Positions 10,834-60,641 of a DNA stretch of 64,000 nucleotides are shown here, piece by piece (within the stretch, counting starts at the first letter, position 1; the number at the start of each line of letters is the position of its first letter). A program made the translations under genes and the position numbers. Under the pieces are notes generated by a model, which saw only the letters and a list, made by a program, of their open reading frames with translations, did not search any database and was not told where the DNA came from. The DNA lies in the NCBI RefSeq assembly GCF_056712565.1, contig NZ_CM160072.1. One strand, 5' to 3'.

Positions 10834-11022
10834 CAGGGACATCCTTTTATCATCGGGAATACGAAAGAAAAGGGAGAATAAACGTCTTACTTATAGAACA
10901 GTGAAGAATGCCACAATTTTACGCTTTGAAAATGATGACACTATCACAGTTGGCGCATTCATTAACGATAGGGTATAAGTAAAACAATAAGTTAACACCG
11001 CTCACAGAGACGAGGTGGAGAA

Positions 11023-14262: not shown

Positions 14263-14429
14263 ATCTTATCCGACCTTTCAGGCCAGATCCTCGGAAGGGG
14301 AAGTTGATTAATTTGTGTGAAATACACATTGAAAGCCGATTCGAAGAAAGTGAACCGGCATTTTCAGTGGCTAGTATAGCGTAAGGTACTGTAAAGCCGC
14401 CAGAGGGTTAAAATTCAGACAGCTGAAAA

Positions 14430-14555
14430 ATGAAAAACTGCCTGATGCGCTATGCCGAACAGGCCTACGCAGTCCCCGCAATATATTGAATTTGGACGAT
14501 TTTGTAGGCCTGGCATTTTGTTTACGCCGTATCCGGCATAAACAAAATGCACTTT
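14430..14555. repeat. REP elements
   Basis: GCCTGATGCGC...AGGCCTAC / GCCGGATACGGCG palindromic units between ytfL and msrA. Confidence 0.6.
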
Positions 14556-23465: not shown

Positions 23466-23577
23466 ATGCCTGATGCCGATTCGTAGGCCGGATAAGGCGC
23501 TCGCGCCGCATCCGGCGGTTGTGCGCTGAAGCCTGATGCGACGCTTACCGCGTCTTATCATGCCTACTGGGAGCACG
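23466..23577. repeat. REP elements
   Basis: GCCTGATGC...GTAGGCCGGATAAGGCG... units between ytfQ and ytfR. Confidence 0.6.
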
Positions 23578-29704: not shown

Positions 29705-29825
29705 CCTCAGCCTGATAGAGTGTGTGTAGGCCGGATAAGGCGTTCACGCCGCATCCGGCATTTGAGCATAGTGCCTGATGCGACGCTTGATGCGTCTTAT
29801 CAGGCCTACAGGTGCACCGCATCCG
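29705..29825. repeat. REP elements
   Basis: GTAGGCCGGATAAGGCG / GCCTGATGCGACGC units between mpl and yjgA. Confidence 0.6.
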
Positions 29826-38865: not shown

Positions 38866-39813
38866 TCAGGACAGGGTGGCGGGGATGATGATTTGTTGCG
38901 GTTCGCTGCGCCCGGTGACCTGCGCGATCAACTGGCAGGCCGCCTGGCGTCCAGCTTCGGCGTAACCGGGATCTACGGTGACGATCTCCGGATGGAGGAA
39001 TTTCATTAACGGTGTATTACCGACGCTCGCCAGTTGCAAGGTGTCGATGCGTTGCTCTTGCAGGTATTTACTTGCGCCAAGTGCCAGCGTGTCGGTTGCG
39101 CACAGTAACGCGGTAGTTTCAGGCGTAATCACTTTTGCTACGTTCTCATAGCCTTGCTTCATAGCAAGCCCTGGCAGAGCGGCAACGGGATGCAATTTAT
39201 GCGCTTTGCAGAACGCCAGGTAGGCTTCGTGACGTCGCTTACCGGTCGTCACGTCACTATGCGGCACGCCGAGATAACTGATATTACGATGCCCCTGGTC
39301 ATACAGCCGTTGCATCAGGATCTTGATTGCCCCTTCGTCGTCATAACAGACCGAAGCAAAGCCTTTTGCGTCACGCGCCAGCAGAACCAGCGATGACTGC
39401 CAGTGGGCTAACATTTCTTCTGTTATGCCGGTAAAACCGAACAGCACTACGCCGTCGATATTACGCCGTTTCAGGACCCCCAAATGTTCGGCAACTAATT
39501 GTGGGGAAAACTGACTTTCCATCATGATTGGATCGTAACCTTGTTCATAGAACGCTGGCAGCATGGTTTGAACGGCGAGATTTTCTGACAACGAATCCAG
39601 ACGGGTAACAATGATGGCGACCACTTTATCGCTTTGCCCACGCATAGCGCGCGCAGAGCGGGAAGGGGAAAATCCATGCTGATTCATCACTGCTTCAACA
39701 CGCTCGCGCGTGCGCTGGCTCACGCCGCTTTCGTTATTCAGCACCCGGGAAACCGTAGATTTCCCCACGCCGCTTAAGCGCGCGATGTCTTTGATGGTCA
39801 GCCGATTTTGCAT
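38866..39813 (-). CDS. treR: trehalose operon repressor (LacI family)
   Basis: 315-aa ORF; N-terminal HTH (TIKDIARLSGVGKSTVSRVLN). Confidence 0.9.
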   Translation of the reverse strand: MQNRLTIKDIARLSGVGKSTVSRVLNNESGVSQRTRERVEAVMNQHGFSPSRSARAMRGQSDKVVAIIVTRLDSLSENLAVQTMLPAFYEQGYDPIMMESQFSPQLVAEHLGVLKRRNIDGVVLFGFTGITEEMLAHWQSSLVLLARDAKGFASVCYDDEGAIKILMQRLYDQGHRNISYLGVPHSDVTTGKRRHEAYLAFCKAHKLHPVAALPGLAMKQGYENVAKVITPETTALLCATDTLALGASKYLQEQRIDTLQLASVGNTPLMKFLHPEIVTVDPGYAEAGRQAACQLIAQVTGRSEPQQIIIPATLS

Positions 39814-39888
39814 CCTGTTGTCCCATAACGTGTTGTTTAATTATTTGAGCCTAACTTTACCTGTGCATTCAGCAATGGGTAAAGTCTG

Positions 39889-39905
39889 GTTTATCGTTGG
39901 TTTAG
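39889..39905 (+). promoter_or_regulatory. PhoP box direct repeat GGTTTA-N5-GGTTTA in mgtA promoter
   Basis: GGTTTATCGTTGGTTTA read directly; mgtA is a known PhoP-activated gene. Confidence 0.5.
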
Positions 39906-39997
39906 TTGCCAGCAGGTATTATATCGCCATAAATGCTACGAATATTATTGGATTCTCCTTATTATTTGCGGCGCTTTTTTCACTTACCGGAGGTTAT

Positions 39998-40051
39998 ATG
40001 GAACCTGATCCCACGCCTCTCCCTCGACGGAGATTAAAACTTTTCCGGTAA
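39998..40051 (+). CDS. mgtL: mgtA leader peptide (proline-rich, 17 aa)
   Basis: [17 protein letters not shown] in the mgtA 5' leader. Confidence 0.8.
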
Positions 40052-40191
40052 GCCCGTCTTTTCACGGCGTTACCGGATGCGTAAGGCCGTGACGTTTTAA
40101 CGTCCCTGCTCAGCTTTATTACCTTCAGGTAAGGCTTCGCCACGCCTGAAGACATTTCTGTACTGTTTCAGACAGTGCGGAGGGACTCCTT

Positions 40192-42888
40192 ATGTTTAAA
40201 GAAATTTTTACCCGGCTCATTCGCCATTTACCTTCCCGTCTGGTTCATCGTGATCCATTGCCTGGCGCGCAGCAGACAGTGAATGCGGCGGTCCCGCCTT
40301 CTTTAAGTGCGCATTGCCTGAAAATGGCGGTGATGCCCGAAGAAGAATTGTGGAAAACGTTCGACACCCATCCGGAAGGGTTAAATCTGGCGGAAGTGGA
40401 ATCTGCCCGCGAACAACATGGTGAAAATAAATTACCCGCACAACAACCGTCGCCGTGGTGGGTACATTTATGGGTCTGCTATCGCAACCCCTTTAATATT
40501 TTGCTCACCATTCTTGGTGCTATTTCTTACGCCACGGAAGATTTATTTGCCGCAGGTGTTATCGCGCTAATGGTCGCTATTTCTACGTTGCTGAACTTTA
40601 TTCAGGAAGCTCGTTCCACCAAAGCGGCAGATGCCCTGAAAGCGATGGTCAGTAATACCGCGACGGTACTGCGAGTAATTAACGACAAAGGCGAAAATGG
40701 CTGGCTGGAGATCCCGATCGACCAGCTGGTGCCCGGCGATATTATAAAACTGGCGGCAGGGGATATGATCCCGGCAGATTTACGTATCTTGCAGGCGCGG
40801 GATCTGTTCGTCGCTCAGGCGTCGTTAACCGGTGAGTCTCTGCCCGTGGAAAAAGCCGCTACTACTCGCCAGCCGGAGCACAGCAATCCGCTGGAGTGCG
40901 ACACCCTGTGTTTTATGGGCACCACCGTGGTGAGCGGCACGGCACAAGCAATGGTGATTGCTACAGGAGCCAACACCTGGTTTGGTCAACTGGCGGGGCG
41001 TGTTAGTGAGCAGGAAAGCGAGCCGAATGCCTTTCAGCAAGGGATCAGCCGCGTCAGTATGCTGCTGATTCGCTTTATGCTGGTGATGGCTCCGGTGGTG
41101 TTGCTTATCAACGGTTACACCAAAGGCGACTGGTGGGAAGCGGCACTGTTCGCACTTTCGGTCGCGGTAGGCTTAACGCCAGAAATGTTGCCGATGATTG
41201 TTACCTCGACGCTGGCGCGTGGCGCAGTCAAGTTGTCGAAACAGAAAGTGATCGTCAAACATCTGGATGCCATTCAGAACTTTGGCGCAATGGATATTCT
41301 GTGCACTGATAAAACCGGCACCCTGACACAGGATAAAATTGTGCTGGAGAATCATACCGATATCTCCGGTAAAACTAGCGAACGCGTGCTGCATAGCGCG
41401 TGGTTGAACAGCCATTACCAGACCGGGCTTAAAAACCTGCTTGATACAGCGGTGCTCGAAGGTACGGATGAAGAGTCAGCGCGCTCGCTGGCCAGCCGTT
41501 GGCAAAAAATTGATGAGATTCCATTTGATTTCGAGCGTCGTCGGATGTCGGTGGTTGTGGCAGAAAATACCGAACACCATCAGTTGGTTTGCAAAGGCGC
41601 ATTGCAGGAAATCCTCAATGTGTGTTCGCAAGTGCGTCACAATGGCGAGATTGTACCGCTCGATGACACCATGCTGCGTAAGATTAAGCGGGTTACTGAT
41701 ACGCTGAATCGTCAGGGGCTGCGCGTGGTTGCGGTGGCGACGAAATACCTGCCAGCGCGTGAAGGAGATTACCAGCGGGCGGATGAATCCGACCTGATCC
41801 TCGAAGGATATATTGCTTTCCTTGATCCGCCAAAAGAGACAACAGCTCCGGCACTGAAGGCATTAAAAGCGAGTGGAATTACCGTAAAAATCCTTACTGG
41901 CGACAGTGAGTTGGTTGCAGCGAAAGTGTGCCATGAAGTGGGGCTGGACGCGGGAGAGGTGGTCATTGGTAGTGATATTGAAACGCTATCTGACGACGAA
42001 CTGGCAAATCTCGCACAGCGCACCACGCTGTTTGCTCGTCTGACGCCGATGCATAAAGAACGCATCGTAACGTTGCTGAAGCGCGAAGGGCATGTGGTTG
42101 GCTTTATGGGCGATGGTATTAATGATGCGCCCGCCTTGCGCGCTGCGGATATCGGCATTTCTGTGGACGGCGCGGTAGATATTGCCCGTGAAGCGGCTGA
42201 TATCATCCTGCTGGAAAAAAGCCTGATGGTGCTGGAAGAGGGGGTTATTGAGGGACGTCGCACTTTCGCCAACATGCTGAAATACATCAAAATGACGGCG
42301 AGCTCTAACTTCGGTAATGTGTTCAGCGTGCTGGTGGCGAGTGCTTTCTTGCCCTTCCTGCCGATGTTGCCGCTACACTTGCTTATTCAAAATCTGCTGT
42401 ACGATGTGTCACAGGTGGCGATCCCATTTGATAACGTCGACGACGAGCAAATTCAAAAGCCGCAGCGTTGGAATCCGGCGGATCTGGGGCGCTTTATGGT
42501 CTTCTTCGGACCGATCAGCTCGATTTTCGATATTCTGACGTTTTGCCTGATGTGGTGGGTATTCCATGCCAACACGCCGGAAACGCAAACGCTGTTCCAG
42601 TCGGGCTGGTTTGTGGTGGGCTTACTGTCGCAAACGCTGATTGTGCATATGATCCGCACCCGTCGTGTACCGTTTATTCAGAGCTGTGCATCGTGGCCGT
42701 TAATGATTATGACCGTGATCGTGATGATTGTCGGGATCGCATTGCCGTTTTCACCGCTGGCCAGTTATCTGCAGCTGCAGGCGCTGCCGTTAAGCTATTT
42801 CCCGTGGCTGGTTGCGATTCTGGCAGGGTATATGACGTTAACCCAGTTGGTGAAAGGGTTCTATAGCCGTCGTTACGGTTGGCAGTAA
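40192..42888 (+). CDS. mgtA: Mg2+-importing P-type ATPase
   Basis: 898-aa ORF; DKTGTLT phosphorylation motif and GDGINDAPAL. Confidence 0.95.
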   Translation: MFKEIFTRLIRHLPSRLVHRDPLPGAQQTVNAAVPPSLSAHCLKMAVMPEEELWKTFDTHPEGLNLAEVESAREQHGENKLPAQQPSPWWVHLWVCYRNPFNILLTILGAISYATEDLFAAGVIALMVAISTLLNFIQEARSTKAADALKAMVSNTATVLRVINDKGENGWLEIPIDQLVPGDIIKLAAGDMIPADLRILQARDLFVAQASLTGESLPVEKAATTRQPEHSNPLECDTLCFMGTTVVSGTAQAMVIATGANTWFGQLAGRVSEQESEPNAFQQGISRVSMLLIRFMLVMAPVVLLINGYTKGDWWEAALFALSVAVGLTPEMLPMIVTSTLARGAVKLSKQKVIVKHLDAIQNFGAMDILCTDKTGTLTQDKIVLENHTDISGKTSERVLHSAWLNSHYQTGLKNLLDTAVLEGTDEESARSLASRWQKIDEIPFDFERRRMSVVVAENTEHHQLVCKGALQEILNVCSQVRHNGEIVPLDDTMLRKIKRVTDTLNRQGLRVVAVATKYLPAREGDYQRADESDLILEGYIAFLDPPKETTAPALKALKASGITVKILTGDSELVAAKVCHEVGLDAGEVVIGSDIETLSDDELANLAQRTTLFARLTPMHKERIVTLLKREGHVVGFMGDGINDAPALRAADIGISVDGAVDIAREAADIILLEKSLMVLEEGVIEGRRTFANMLKYIKMTASSNFGNVFSVLVASAFLPFLPMLPLHLLIQNLLYDVSQVAIPFDNVDDEQIQKPQRWNPADLGRFMVFFGPISSIFDILTFCLMWWVFHANTPETQTLFQSGWFVVGLLSQTLIVHMIRTRRVPFIQSCASWPLMIMTVIVMIVGIALPFSPLASYLQLQALPLSYFPWLVAILAGYMTLTQLVKGFYSRRYGWQ

Positions 42889-44965: not shown

Positions 44966-45100
44966 TTATCTCCTGACGCCTGGGCAAAAAAAAGCCCCTC
45001 GATTGAGGGGCTGGGAATGGGTGATCAACGGGAAGAAAAACGGCAGGCCAGCGTCTTTTTTCAGACGCGGTAAGACAAAATGTCGAACACACTGAACCAT
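44966..45100 (-). CDS. pyrL: pyrBI operon leader peptide
   Basis: Hand translation MVQCVRHFVLPRLKKDAGLPFFFPLITHSQPLNRGAFFCPGVRR (44 aa) immediately upstream of pyrB. Confidence 0.85.
   Translation of the reverse strand: MVQCVRHFVLPRLKKDAGLPFFFPLITHSQPLNRGAFFCPGVRR
44986..45012 (-). terminator. pyrBI attenuator terminator
   Basis: AGCCCCTC-gatt/aatc-GAGGGGCT hairpin followed by T8 on the minus strand, inside pyrL. Confidence 0.75.
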
Positions 45101-45189: not shown

Positions 45190-45678
45190 TCATGAATATA
45201 TATTCAATTTTAATAAGTAATTAATTTGCTTGTGCACCAGGGCTGTACGCTTTACCACACGTGGTGCGACCCAAACGATATTGCTGCCAGCAATCACGCC
45301 AAGAATTTCTGGCAAAGCATGGAAATCAAGGATTCGTGCTACTGCCCGACCATATCCGGCGACGGTATGGATAAGGATAAATTCACCATTATGCTCGACA
45401 CTCAGGACCATTTCAGCGACGGATCGACCTGCGTCAGGTGTGGGAAGTAATTGAGGATTCACCGAATAAATTTTTTGTCCTTTTGTATTTCTAATTTTTA
45501 TGACTCCCAGCAATTTCAGTAGTCGTGAAACGGTTGACTGACTGATACTGTCAAAGCCATGGTTTTGCAAATCGCGGCGGATTTCCTCCTGTGAAAGATA
45601 ACTTTTTTCGGTAATCAGGCGCTGACAGACCGCCAGTTGCTTCTTTTCTTTGGCGGAGTAATCATCGTATTCCTTCAT
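45190..45678 (-). CDS. ArgR-family transcriptional regulator (ADI cluster-associated)
   Basis: ORF 45190-45744 trimmed to Met at 45678 preceded by AAAGGTG; ArgR-like DNA-binding region (SQSTVSRLLK...IRNTKGQ) and C-terminal oligomerisation region. Confidence 0.75.
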   Translation of the reverse strand: MKEYDDYSAKEKKQLAVCQRLITEKSYLSQEEIRRDLQNHGFDSISQSTVSRLLKLLGVIKIRNTKGQKIYSVNPQLLPTPDAGRSVAEMVLSVEHNGEFILIHTVAGYGRAVARILDFHALPEILGVIAGSNIVWVAPRVVKRTALVHKQINYLLKLNIYS

Positions 45679-45793
45679 AATGCACCTTTTATTTATTATT
45701 ACCTGATGATATTTTTCACATTTTATAATGTGAGAGTGGTTCATTTATCACTACACCAGATTTGAAGGCCGCTTTGATAAGCGGCCTGTCGCG

Positions 45794-47197
45794 TTAAATC
45801 ATCGCGGCGATACTCAGCACAATCATATTCAACATCGTGAGAATCAGCAGTAGCGGTGCTACCCATCTCAGATAACGGACCCAGGGTACACGGGCAATCG
45901 CCAGACCGCCCATCACTACCGCAGAGGTTGGCGTAATCAAATTAACCACCCCGGAAGCAGACTGATAAGCGGTCACCACCAGATCGCGTTGTACATGAGC
46001 AAAATCAGCGAGTGGAGCCATTATTGGCATCGTTAACACTGCAAGGCCGGAAGATGAGGGAACCAGAAAAGAGAGCAATACTTCCAGCCAATAGGTCACG
46101 TTGATGAAAACAGTGGTGGAAAGCCCTGAAACCAGATTCTCAGCACTGTGCAGAATTGTGTGCGTAATCATGCCGTTATCCATCACGACCACAATACCGC
46201 GGGCGATGCCGATAATCAGTGCCACACCAAGGAGATCCCGCGCGCCGTCAATAAAGGTACTGGTGAAGGTTTCTTCGCCCATGCGGGCAATGACACCCAC
46301 GATGACCGCAGCTGCCAGAAAGACAGCAGAGATTTCCGCCATCCACCAACCCAGTACCGCTACGCCGTAAATCATAAAGGCAAAGGATGCAGCAAAAAGT
46401 ATCAGGATCGCTTTGCGCGTGGGGGTAAATTCCAGCATCGTTTCTGAACGATTTCCCAGAAAATGCGCCTGGTTTTCAGCCATCTTATCCGCCACGATAG
46501 AGCTTTCCGGACTGTTGCGAACTTTGCGGGCATAACGCATAACCCAGTAAACACAAATCACGTAGCCTACTAACAGCAAAATAACACGCAGCAAAATGCC
46601 CTGAGTAAAGGGGATCCCTGCGGCGTTGGCAGCAATGACGGTAGCAAATGGGTTAATGGTTGAGCCCAGCGTGCCAATGCCCGATCCCAATAACACTGTG
46701 GCGGCAGCGACCAGAGGATCAAAGCGGGCAGCCATCATGACGGGCACCAGCAACGTGTAGAAGGGGAGTGATTCTTCCGCCATCCCATAAATAGTACCGC
46801 CAGCAGCGAAGAGCGCCATCAGGATCGGAATCATCCACTCTTCCCGACCATTAAGGCGAGTTGTCACTCGTTCGATACCGGCATCTATTGCTCCGGTTTT
46901 ATTTACTACTCCCAAAAATCCACCGATGATCAGGACAAACAGCGCGACATCAATCGCTCCCGCAGTGTAGGTTTGATGGTTGTACAAGCCGTCGATGGGC
47001 GCTAACAGGACAGCCGTAATACCCTGTGGTTGCGCCTCAACAGGTGCGTAAGTGCCTGCAACAGGAACTTCCTTTCCCAGTGCGGCATTTGTCACCATCT
47101 GATATTTTCCCGCAGGTACAATCCAGGTCATTGCCGCAACTAACGCAATCAGCACGAACAAGATGGTATAAGCGGTGGGAAATTTGAATTTACCCAT
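45794..47197 (-). CDS. membrane carrier, probably YfcC/DcuC-type anaerobic carrier family; putative arginine/ornithine exchanger of the ADI cluster
   Basis: ORF 45794-47242 trimmed to Met at 47197 preceded by GGAGA; highly hydrophobic multi-TM protein; family assignment from sequence recall only. Confidence 0.7.
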   Translation of the reverse strand: MGKFKFPTAYTILFVLIALVAAMTWIVPAGKYQMVTNAALGKEVPVAGTYAPVEAQPQGITAVLLAPIDGLYNHQTYTAGAIDVALFVLIIGGFLGVVNKTGAIDAGIERVTTRLNGREEWMIPILMALFAAGGTIYGMAEESLPFYTLLVPVMMAARFDPLVAAATVLLGSGIGTLGSTINPFATVIAANAAGIPFTQGILLRVILLLVGYVICVYWVMRYARKVRNSPESSIVADKMAENQAHFLGNRSETMLEFTPTRKAILILFAASFAFMIYGVAVLGWWMAEISAVFLAAAVIVGVIARMGEETFTSTFIDGARDLLGVALIIGIARGIVVVMDNGMITHTILHSAENLVSGLSTTVFINVTYWLEVLLSFLVPSSSGLAVLTMPIMAPLADFAHVQRDLVVTAYQSASGVVNLITPTSAVVMGGLAIARVPWVRYLRWVAPLLLILTMLNMIVLSIAAMI

Positions 47198-47253
47198 AAT
47201 GTGATCTCCATAATCACGGGCATACGCCACTCGTCGACGCATGCCCGTCAGGG

Positions 47254-48258
47254 TTAGTCGCCGAGAGTTGCTACCATCACCGCTTTAATGGTGTGCATCC
47301 GGTTTTCTGCTTCATCGAAAACAATGGAGTGGGCAGATTCAAAAACCTCATCAGTTACTTCCAGTCCTTTGAGGCCGTAGGCCATCTCGATCTCGCGTCC
47401 TACTGTGGTGTGCTCATTATGGAAGGCGGGCAGGCAGTGCATAAATTTGACTTCAGGGTTACGCGTGGCAGTAATCACCTGTTGATTGATCTGATAAGGT
47501 GTCATAAGACTCACTCGTTCTGCCCAGGCTTCTTTTGGCTCTCCCATCGAAACCCAAACATCCGTATAGAGAAAATCAACGTCGTATACGCCTTCTTCCA
47601 CATCCTCTGTCAGGGTGATTCTCGCCCCAGTCACGCTGGCGATCTCACGGCATTGTGTTACCAGCGCTTCATCTGGCCAGAAAGATTTTGGTGCCACCAG
47701 ACGGATATCCATCCCCATTTTTGCAGCACCAACCATCAGCGAGTTCCCCATGTTATTTCGGGCATCACCAAGATACGCAAAGCTCAGCTCTGGCAGCGTT
47801 TTGCCTGGCGCATGTTCCAGCATGGTCATTAAATCCGCGAGGATCTGTGTCGGGTGAAATTCATTGGTCAGTCCGTTCCATACCGGAACACCAGCGAACT
47901 CACCTAATTCTTCAACGATATTCTGACCATAACCGCGATACTCAATACCGTCATACATGCGTCCGAGTACGCGAGCGGTATCTTTCATTGATTCTTTATG
48001 GCCGATTTGTGAGCCGCTGGGGCCGATGTAAGTCACCTGCGCACCTTGATCAAAGGCCGCGACTTCAAAGGCACAGCGGGTACGGGTAGAGGATTTTTCA
48101 AAAATCAACGCAATGTTTTTACCGACCAGCGTTTGTTTTTCGTTTCCAGATTTCTTGGCGGCTTTAAGATTGATAGCCAAATCAATCAGGTATTGAATCT
48201 CTGCTGGGGTGTAATCAAGCAGCTTAAGAAAATTACGGTTTTTCAGTGAAGTAGCCAT
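47254..48258 (-). CDS. ornithine carbamoyltransferase (ADI-cluster copy, ArgI-like)
   Basis: ORF 47254-48285 trimmed to Met at 48258 preceded by AAGGA; STRTR and HCLP motifs; high similarity to argI product at 51620-52624. Confidence 0.85.
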
Positions 48259-48268
48259 GGGGATGTCC

Positions 48269-49213
48269 TTATAAAAATGGATCAAGCGTGGTTATGGGGG
48301 TATCAAGGCGAATAAGAGTGCCTTTGTCTCCGGCGAGAATTTCCGGACCATCTGCAAGAGAGCCGATCCCTGCAATGCCCCGGCACTGACTAACAAACTT
48401 TGCGCAGGCGGTGACTTTCGGCCCCATAGACCCGGCATCAAACTGCATTTCGTTGAGTAATTCCGGCGTGACCTGGGCCAGCGGGCGTTGGGTTGGCTTG
48501 CCCCAGTCGAGATATACTGCGTCCGCATCAGTGAGGATCAACAAGGCGTCAGCATGGATCTGACTTGCCAGTAGCGCGGCTGAAAGATCTTTGTCGATAA
48601 CCGCTTCAATCCCATGGTATCCATCGGCTTTTTCAACCACCGGAACACCACCGCCACCATTACAGATCACCAGATGATCGTGGGCGATCAGTGTCTGGAT
48701 GGCATCCCGCTCGACGATGCGTTTAGGTTGTGGAGAAGGTACGACCCGGCGGAAAGAGTGACCATCTGCTTTGAAAACCCAGCCTTTTTCTGCCTGTAGT
48801 ACCTGAGTCTGAGCGTGGTCATAAATTGGGCCGATGTACTTAGTTGGGTTACTGAAGGCGGGATCGTTGGCATCCACTTCAACCTGCGTCAGCAGAACGC
48901 TGATTTCACGTTGTGGTAGTTGATTTTTCAGCGCCTGTTGTAGCATGTAGCCGATCATCCCCTGGCTTTCGGCCCCCAGAATGTCGAGTGGATAGGGAGC
49001 GACATGGGCATAGGCGCTATTTTGAAGTGCCAGAAGTCCAACTTGTGGACCATTCCCGTGAACCAGTACAACCCGCCAGTGTTGAGTCAGTTGGGCGATA
49101 GTTTTAGCCGCAAGATCGATATTTTTACGTTGGATTTCTGCTTCGAGTGGTTCGCCTCGTTTAAGCAGGGCATTACCGCCGAGAGCGATAACCAGTGTTG
49201 GTTTGTTTTCCAT
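48269..49213 (-). CDS. carbamate kinase
   Basis: ORF 48269-49237 trimmed to Met at 49213 preceded by AAGGAAG; carbamate kinase-like sequence ([10 protein letters not shown]...). Confidence 0.85.
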
Positions 49214-49223
49214 GATCTCTTCC

Positions 49224-50447
49224 TTAGATACCGTCACGATGCAAAGGGCAACTCATGCAACGTGCGCCGCCACGTCCGCGGCCTAATTCATCACCGGGGA
49301 TGGGTAAAACGGTGATGCCTGCTTTGTCATATTTTTCGTTAGTCCAGATGTTGCGCTCGTAGCCCACTACCACTCCCGGCCGAAGCGTGAGCACATTGTT
49401 AGCGTCATTCCACTGTTCGCGTTCTGCCTCAAAGGCATCACCCCCCGTGGTGATTAAACGTACCTGGTCAATACCGAGGGCTTTTTCGATAGCATGGAGG
49501 AGTGTGCTTTCTTGAGTACGTTTCAGGCCGCCGTGACCGTCAGGTGTTAGCGTCCAGCAATTAACATCCGGGCGCACAACTTCGGGATAAACCGAGAAGG
49601 TGTCGATATCGATATGAGTCATAACGGTGTCAAGATGCATACAGGAGCGGTGTTTAGGCAGCTCAACAGCGATTACCCGTTCAGCCTGACGATGTTTAAA
49701 CAATGCCTGAGCAAGAAACTCGATTCCTTGTGGCGTGGTGCGTTCAGACATGCCGATCAACACGGCCCCCCGACCAATCACCAGCACATCACCACCTTCT
49801 AACGTGGCGTGGTCATAATTAATATTCTCGTCGCCGAAATATTTAATAAATTCGCCGCCAGCAAATTGTGGATGCCAGCGATAAATAGCGCGTAGATTAT
49901 TGGTTTCACGTTGGCGAGCAGGTTTTGCCATTGGATTAATCGATACACCGTTATAAATCCAGCATGAGGTATCACGCGTAAATAAATGATTCGGTAACGG
50001 CTTCATAATGAAATCATTAATATCGTGGGTATCAACCACCATATTTTTAATTGAGGCGGGAATTTCACTATAAGTCAGCCCACCACTTAAATGACGAGCA
50101 AGGTCCCGGTGTGACATCTCTGCAAGCCAGGTGCGAACGTCAGTAGCAAACGTAGGGCCGAGTCGGTAATCTGATATTTGTGTTTCCAGTAACCAGCTTT
50201 TGGCTTCCGGGATATCCAATGTTTGTGTTAGTAAATCAGTGAGTAACAGAACTTCTATCCCTTGCTGGCGCAGCGTATTGGCGAAAATATCATGCTCTTC
50301 ACCTGCCCGCTCAACGGACAATACATCGTCAAATAACAACTCCTGGCAATTGGATGGTGTTAGACGTTTCAGACTGAGATTTGGGCGATGCAACATAACG
50401 CTGCGTAGTTGTCCAATTTCAGAACCAACATAATGCTTTTCCATCAT
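49224..50447 (-). CDS. arginine deiminase
   Basis: 407-aa ORF; amidinotransferase-family sequence with C-terminal catalytic Cys region (RCMSCPL). Confidence 0.85.
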
Positions 50448-58624: not shown

Positions 58625-58860
<236 letters not shown>

Positions 58861-58863
58861 CAA

Positions 58864-60378
<1,515 letters not shown>

Positions 60379-60641
60379 CTACGCTCCTGAATCTTAAAGA
60401 CAACGGCGGTGGCTACAGATAGAATTGCAAGCTTTCGTAACTCATGTCCGCTGTTGCGATGACTTCGTGTTAATCTTAACGTTATTACGGCATTGGCACG
60501 TCAGAACAAAATCTGAGAGGTGAATCCGTTGAGTATAATTATCTTAGCGACGATTTCGACGACTCAAGAGAATAAATGACGTTTAAGCCATGAAACAAGC
60601 TAAAATCCTGCAAAAGACGAGTTTTTACGGGCGTATTTAAA

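Follow-up and report, generated by a model that had tools for sequence, protein, structure and literature searches.

The region between treR and mgtA in the window analysed here (the whole stretch of DNA, 64,000 nucleotides) is almost certainly the native E. coli mgtA control region, in which a PhoP-dependent promoter is combined with leader attenuation controlled by the small ORF mgtL. This promoter and leader belong to an already known system and their identification is correct. Two-layer control by Mg2+ explains both the small ORF and the long leader, which consequently represent neither a new small gene nor a new RNA element. The initial annotation of this DNA had proposed the known Mg2+/proline-sensing attenuation architecture, a proposal now supported by identity with K-12, by a match to Rfam family RF01056 and by the RefSeq annotation of mgtL. 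The arguments drawn from our own analysis are the K-12 identity, the Rfam match, the capacity of the leader to adopt alternative structures, covariation in stem B, conservation of the mgtL frame and the geometry of the promoter.

The locus and its relationship to E. coli K-12

The intergenic region (39814-40191) separates a minus-strand ORF of 315 aa from a plus-strand ORF of 898 aa. The former, at 38866-39813 (-), is treR (NCBIfam TreR TIGR02405, 590.7 bits). The latter, at 40192-42888 (+), is mgtA, encoding the Mg2+-importing P-type ATPase (TIGR01524 equivalog, 1609.6 bits for a cutoff of 610.75; RefSeq annotation). The leader bearing the RF01056 match is therefore located 5′ of a gene for a Mg2+-transporting P-type ATPase, as identified by the TIGR01524 profile. 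From the mgtL stop to the mgtA ATG the distance is exactly 140 nt (40052-40191, 40191 being the final leader base), as had been estimated approximately from the first reading of the sequence.

Using 39814-40191 as a megablast query against 5426 complete E. coli genomes, we found the treR-mgtA intergenic region in 5425 of them, with a median of one copy per genome, and 5417 of the 5426 carry its 118-nt core (39983-40100) with an identity of 99% or more. The RefSeq annotation under the match reads ‘mgtA regulatory leader peptide MgtL’. Strain SA186 is 100% identical over 39814-40191 and displays the gene order treC-treB-treR, mgtL-mgtA, ridA-pyrI. The arrangement is the same in K-12 MG1655, where mgtL (b4702) and mgtA (b4242) are annotated. 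In one strain, E. coli GCU-H1 (NZ_CP178558.1, hit H12), the megablast match is limited to positions 1-118 of the query, corresponding to 39814-39931 and ending approximately at the transcription start. The leader of this strain appears deleted or interrupted beyond that point.

The alignment to the K-12 mgtA leader that the initial annotation had suggested as a check gives 6 mismatches in 387 columns, none of them in the PhoP box or in mgtL. Thus neither the mgtL codons nor the PhoP box have been lost relative to K-12, both being identical, and the region maps upstream of mgtA. The mismatches (window/K-12) are at 39824-39825 (CA/TG), 39856 (T/G), 39862 (T/C), 39909 (C/T) and 39932 (A/G), all upstream of 39933. 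These six substitutions fall in the treR-proximal and promoter part and touch no defined element. From 39933 to the mgtA start, that is from about +5 of the transcript, the sequence is identical base for base to that of K-12 MG1655. Of the two promoter differences, the C for T at 39909 lies in the spacer between box and -10 hexamer and the A for G at 39932 at about +4.

Other features were also observed elsewhere in the window. The pyrL leader peptide of the pyrBI attenuator is located at 44966-45100 (-), where its ORF was confirmed. Between pyrL and a yjgK-like gene, a minus-strand cluster (~45190-50445) comprises, as annotated in strain SA186 (~99% identical), genes for an arginine repressor, a YfcC-family protein, argF, arcC (carbamate kinase) and arcA (arginine deiminase), with a second argF further on. 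From the annotation of the same strain, the very small ORF ytgA would lie upstream of lptF at ~60530-60580 (+). Rfam Ysr276 (Yersinia sRNA 276, antisense type) matches over its full length at 59623-59817 (+) with 183.1 bits, opposite the pepA coding region (minus strand, ~58865-60376). ES239 sRNA matches at 10834-10956 (+) with 157.4 bits, across the 5′ end of cpdB and the spacer between cpdB and cysQ. Matches at gathering level were found for STnc450 (14324-14381, -) and ES036 (14461-14503, -) in the paeA-msrA spacer, and for three copies of naRNA4 in intergenic spacers (23486-23564, 29729-29806 and 58714-58789, all +).

The PhoP promoter and the mgtL leader ORF

The PhoP box is the direct repeat GGTTTA TCGTT GGTTTA (GGTTTATCGTTGGTTTA) at 39888-39904 (+), an exact match that is the same in K-12. 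The initial annotation was right about the presence of the repeat and placed it one base off, at 39889-39905. On either strand of the 64-kb window, GGTTTATCGTTGGTTTA is the sole exact match, and none was obtained in 100 dinucleotide-preserving shuffles. Allowing one mismatch to KGTTTA-N5-KGTTTA yields two further sites in the window, which corresponds to chance level. The repeat fits the consensus (T/G)GTTTA-N5-(T/G)GTTTA (PMC3335776), the direct-repeat consensus of architecture I PhoP promoters, and the box footprinted at Salmonella mgtA, TGGTTTATCGTTGGTTTAA, has the same core (PMC3335776). For these identical K-12 and Salmonella boxes, binding of PhoP-P as well as dependence on PhoP/PhoQ and on low Mg2+ have been published (PMC3335776, PMC11552253).

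The box is in direct orientation, on the same strand as mgtA, and a spacer of 12 nt (39905-39916) separates it from the -10 hexamer TATTAT of the PhoP-dependent promoter, predicted from this spacing at 39917-39922 (+). A distance of 12 nt from box to -10 defines the ‘architecture I’ PhoP promoters (class II activation), among which Salmonella mgtA is included (PMC3335776). The mgtA promoter has no -35 consensus and a simple sigma-70 scan makes no call there. This is no counter-evidence, since the absence of a -35 consensus is part of the definition of architecture I PhoP promoters. Between treR and mgtA, the same scan returned a single sigma-70-like site, located at 39867..39840 of the minus strand (TGCACA-16-AATAAT). 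It lies about 20 nt from the PhoP box and is placed to serve the divergent treR.

By homology with Salmonella, transcription would start at 39928/39929 (+), giving a leader of 263-264 nt. The Salmonella mgtA leader measures 264 nt (PMC3335776) and carries mgtL at nt 71-124 (PMC6460261). The distance from the mgtL ATG to the mgtA ATG is 194 nt, both in the window and in the Salmonella loci.

The proline-rich mgtL ORF of 17 codons plus stop was indeed found by translation at 39998-40051 (+), where it had been reported, and K-12 alignment and RefSeq concur. Its DNA is identical to K-12 mgtL, the reference peptide being RefSeq WP_001387276.1 / K-12 b4702. MgtL carries Pro at positions 3, 5, 7 and 9, and acidic residues at positions 2 and 4. 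Its Shine-Dalgarno (SD) GGAGG, as read from the sequence, is at 39989-39993 (+), within the 5′ strand of stem A, and the segment containing it, CTTACCGGAGG, is invariant among 24 aligned leaders. In E. coli, MgtL gives a toeprint at Pro3 and contains the destabilising motif EPDP, which affects mgtA expression in a translation-dependent manner, the QN mutant losing mgtA reporter expression (PMC11282234). A longer ORF of 113 aa with a GTG start (39710-40051) was also listed and rejected. It continues the mgtL frame in the 5′ direction, across the promoter and into the treR coding sequence, and is an artefact of the automatic listing of ORFs.

Conservation and alternative structures of the leader

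Conservation of mgtL beyond E. coli was explored by scanning a collection of species-representative genomes with a pattern in which only positions 1 and 2 of mgtL codons 1-10 were fixed. This returned 29 loci, of which 26 belong to Enterobacteriaceae (Escherichia, Salmonella, Citrobacter, Kosakonia, Leclercia, Superficieibacter, Pseudescherichia, Enterobacter and MAGs). The other three (L010, L017 and L021, from Oscillospiraceae, uncultured bacterium and Anaerolineae MAGs) have no short mgtL-like ORF or downstream mgtA and were discarded as chance matches; with 19 bases specified and 298 Gb scanned, we calculate that about 2 such matches are expected. Conservation of MgtL residues 1-10 is circular, because the scan was seeded with the first ten codons. 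Start and stop positions, frame, wobble positions, stems, PhoP box and downstream gene are independent of the seed.

By these independent features, the arrangement is strikingly stable. The ORF has 15-17 codons in all 26 enterobacterial loci, with C-terminal indels of 3 or 6 nt only, all in frame, and its stop is in every case the TAA within CCGGTAAG. A MgtA-like ORF follows 185-295 nt past the mgtL ATG in 25 of the 26, the sequence of the remaining locus (L023) being too short downstream to tell. Upstream of mgtL, 25/26 loci carry a repeat resembling the PhoP box, with no more than 2 mismatches, mostly 79-122 nt before the ATG, for ~0.01 expected by chance per locus according to our arithmetic. 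At the sequence level, maintenance of the mgtL frame across genera is evidence that the ORF is probably translated.

Some variation was nevertheless recorded among these loci. Codon 11 (40028-40030) is CGG (Arg) in the window and in K-12 and TGG (Trp) in 16 of the 26 relatives, with E. albertii, E. whittamii and two subspecies of Salmonella among the carriers of the latter (loci L005, L022, L024, L012 and L013 among others). The last ~5 residues are otherwise variable in the 26 loci, the peptide of 15-17 aa always ending with a C-terminal Arg. In Escherichia whittamii (L022) and in ‘E. coli’ E69 (L029), the box starts 100 nt, not 110 nt, before the mgtL ATG, and the 5′ leader or promoter part is ~10 nt shorter.

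At the RNA level, Rfam family RF01056 (Magnesium-II) matches 39983-40098 (+) over model positions 1-115 of 115, with 125.8 bits for a gathering score of 40 (E 5.5e-25). According to the Rfam structure line and to the minimum free energy (MFE) fold, the outer helix of stem-loop A pairs 39983-39993 with 40042-40052 and closes a three-way junction around mgtL, which contains two inner hairpins (39999-40001/40011-40013 and 40018-40022/40029-40033). Stem-loop B, supported by the same two sources, pairs 40064-40073 with 40081-40090. The alternative stem-loop C, which excludes A and B, pairs 40044-40051 with 40070-40077 and, in addition, 40054-40057 with 40064-40067 (all on the + strand). Its main strands are UCCGGUAA (40044-40051), from the A 3′ strand with the mgtL stop inside, and UUACCGGA (40070-40077), from the B 5′ strand.

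The whole leader folds at -88.3 kcal/mol (z = -5.7 versus shuffles), and this MFE structure includes A, B and a distal domain. As long as the A-B span is complete, thermodynamic folding always favours A+B. Stem C becomes the MFE structure when the A 5′ strand is removed or masked, or when the RNA ends at 40076, with the B 3′ strand incomplete. The appearance of C only under masking or in partial transcripts fits a kinetic co-transcriptional switch but is no proof of it. The switch between A+B and C has itself been published (PMC11552253; PMC6460261).

Covariation was assessed on an alignment of 24 enterobacterial leaders (A2), with 500 shuffles and slid-partner controls. The A+B pairing is maintained in 97.7% of cells versus 35-49% with slid partners, and none of the 500 shuffles reaches the observed covariation score. 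In these 24 sequences, stem B shows compensatory double changes at 4 of its 10 pairs, with 97.9% of cells paired, and the helix of stem A is 96.9-100% paired and mostly invariant. In the 7-bp core of stem C (CCGGUAA/UUACCGG), five pairs are invariant and the other two are kept in 23/24 and 22/24 sequences. Being near-invariant, stems A and C thus have pairing potential but no covariation support. Such near-invariance is plausible for a segment that pairs in two ways and also encodes the last Arg codon and the stop.

Further downstream, MFE folds predict a distal leader domain at 40102-40186 (+), closed by pairing of GUCCCU (40102-40107) with AGGGAC (40181-40186) and enclosing two hairpins (40123-40151 and 40158-40180) also present in the consensus fold. 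A consensus fold computed from 20 enterobacterial leaders retains the closing helix and both hairpins, some pairs covarying, and GTCCCTG is nearly invariant in the aligned leaders. The AGGGAC strand overlaps the mgtA SD GGAGG (40179-40183), which is paired in the MFE structure. We infer that the distal helix may play a role in mgtA translation. No description of a helix sequestering the SD in the mgtA leader came up in a literature search.

Two published K-12 RNA 3′ ends fall in the leader when mapped to the window with an offset of 4427433, obtained from K-12 annotation and alignment. One, from the Term-seq table of PMC7815308, is at 40057 (+; K-12 4467490), 5 nt past stem A, and would thus correspond to a short transcript of ~129 nt covering mgtL only. 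The other, at 40143 (+; K-12 4467576; PMC7815308 supplementary file 3), is a candidate premature-termination site. It falls within the first distal hairpin (loop and 3′ arm), at a distance of 49 nt from the mgtA ATG.

Two-layer control, competing explanations and related systems

For PhoP binding, mgtL translation, ribosome destabilisation, Mg2+ responsiveness and the termination mechanism, the model presented here draws on the literature. In the first layer, low periplasmic Mg2+ would act through PhoQ so that PhoP-P occupies the repeat 39888-39904. From this repeat, which overlaps the -35 position and lies 12 nt from TATTAT, PhoP-P would activate transcription from ~39928/39929. The second layer would operate in the resulting leader of ~263 nt, which carries mgtL inside stem-loop A. 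When the A 3′ strand UCCGGUAAG, which includes the mgtL stop, pairs with the A 5′ strand, stem-loop B would be free to form. Alternatively, pairing of the same UCCGGUAAG with the B 5′ strand would give stem-loop C. With sufficient cytoplasmic Mg2+ (and Pro-tRNA), mgtL translation would be completed, A+B or B would form and transcription would terminate early, leaving a 3′ end at ~40143 in the distal leader. At low Mg2+, ribosomes would stall or drop off on the E-P-D-P / Pro codons, stem C would form and RNA polymerase would read into mgtA. Attenuation controlled by mgtL translation has been described (PMC11552253, PMC6460261), as has the response of leader conformation and read-through to Mg2+ (PMC11552253).

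How far other explanations could account for the same features has to be considered. The probability that the repeat and the small ORF are functionless chance features of an AT-rich intergenic region is practically negligible. Short ORFs and hexamer repeats do arise by chance, and the same frame carries the spurious 113-aa GTG extension, but the box is absent from all 100 shuffles, the region is near-invariant in 5417 genomes and conserved across genera, and it matches an Rfam family and is backed by experimental literature (PMC11552253, PMC11282234). A pure Mg2+ riboswitch, in which the RNA would bind Mg2+ directly and thereby stabilise A+B, mgtL translation being dispensable, is very unlikely. 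Rfam does class RF01056 as a riboswitch aptamer, and several mgtL wobble positions, being part of the inner hairpins of stem A, do not vary, which makes the constraint at the RNA level a real one. Yet start, frame and stop are kept in 26 loci despite a variable C-terminal part, which is unexpected for an untranslated RNA, and the EPDP motif exerts translation-dependent effects on E. coli mgtA expression (PMC11282234). Mg2+ sensing is now ascribed mainly to the behaviour of ribosomes on the acidic and proline codons of mgtL, direct sensing by the RNA being debated (PMC11552253, PMC5499598). The two mechanisms, direct Mg2+ sensing and mgtL translation, are not mutually exclusive.

The single disputed point, on which published studies already disagree, is whether leader termination in E. 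coli depends on Rho. An output of another kind (arrest or processing without Rho, decay by RNase E, or a distal helix that occludes the mgtA SD) seems rather unlikely. In favour of such an output, the Rho termination score of E. coli mgtA was 1.0 when measured by ChIP-qPCR in the rho R66S mutant, but R66S may simply leave the mgtA terminator unaffected (PMC5499598). Reviews consider, moreover, that E. coli may not share the Rho dependence (PMC11552253, PMC12360218). In the MFE structure the SD of mgtA is paired, and the closing helix is conserved across 20 leaders. On the other hand, Term-seq with bicyclomycin data assigns to the 3′ end 4467576 (40143) a Rho score of 1.56, the mention ‘significant Rho termination region: Yes’ and a low intrinsic terminator score of 1.46 (PMC7815308). 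A terminator scan found no intrinsic-terminator-like site on the + strand of the mgtA leader, and the E. coli leader is treated as Rho-terminated in PMC11282234. That the conserved distal helix across the mgtA SD would constitute, unlike the Salmonella paradigm, a translational or Rho-independent control layer in E. coli is unlikely. If true, it would explain the absent effect of the rho mutant on E. coli mgtA and would be a refinement of the known system, not a new one. Since the leader analysed here is the K-12 leader, the window adds nothing to the debate on Rho.

PhoP-dependent transcription followed by mgtL-controlled attenuation, the reading that we retain, has its closest counterpart in mgtL-mgtA of K-12 MG1655. 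The locus is the same (treR, mgtL-mgtA, ridA), with identical PhoP box, stems A, B and C and distal leader, and it differs by the six treR-proximal and promoter substitutions. The Salmonella enterica mgtA leader shares the core of the PhoP box, the 12-nt spacing to the -10, mgtL at nt ~70-124, the 194-nt spacing between ATGs and the alternative stems. Its peptide differs, the two non-enterica subspecies retrieved having MDPEPTPLPRW R(I/V)FLFR, and Rho dependence is established in Salmonella whereas it is disputed in E. coli.

Similarly, the corL-corA leader of E. coli and Salmonella forms a three-way junction stem A around a short uORF and adopts OFF (A+B) and ON (C) folds as here, and translation of its uORF is inverse to expression of the transporter gene, as for mgtL-mgtA (PMC11552253). 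Unlike mgtA, corA has a constitutive promoter without PhoP box, and corL starts with UUG and has only one conserved proline; this locus is outside the window. More distantly, the trpL, hisL and pyrL attenuators resemble mgtL in that the progress of a ribosome on a short ORF selects between exclusive hairpins and thereby determines read-through. These attenuators end in an intrinsic terminator hairpin with a U-run, whereas the mgtA leader has no such site and termination is assigned by the literature to Rho. The signal also differs: for mgtL it is the Mg2+-dependent stability of the ribosome on acidic and proline codons, and not the supply of charged tRNA alone as in trpL, hisL and pyrL.
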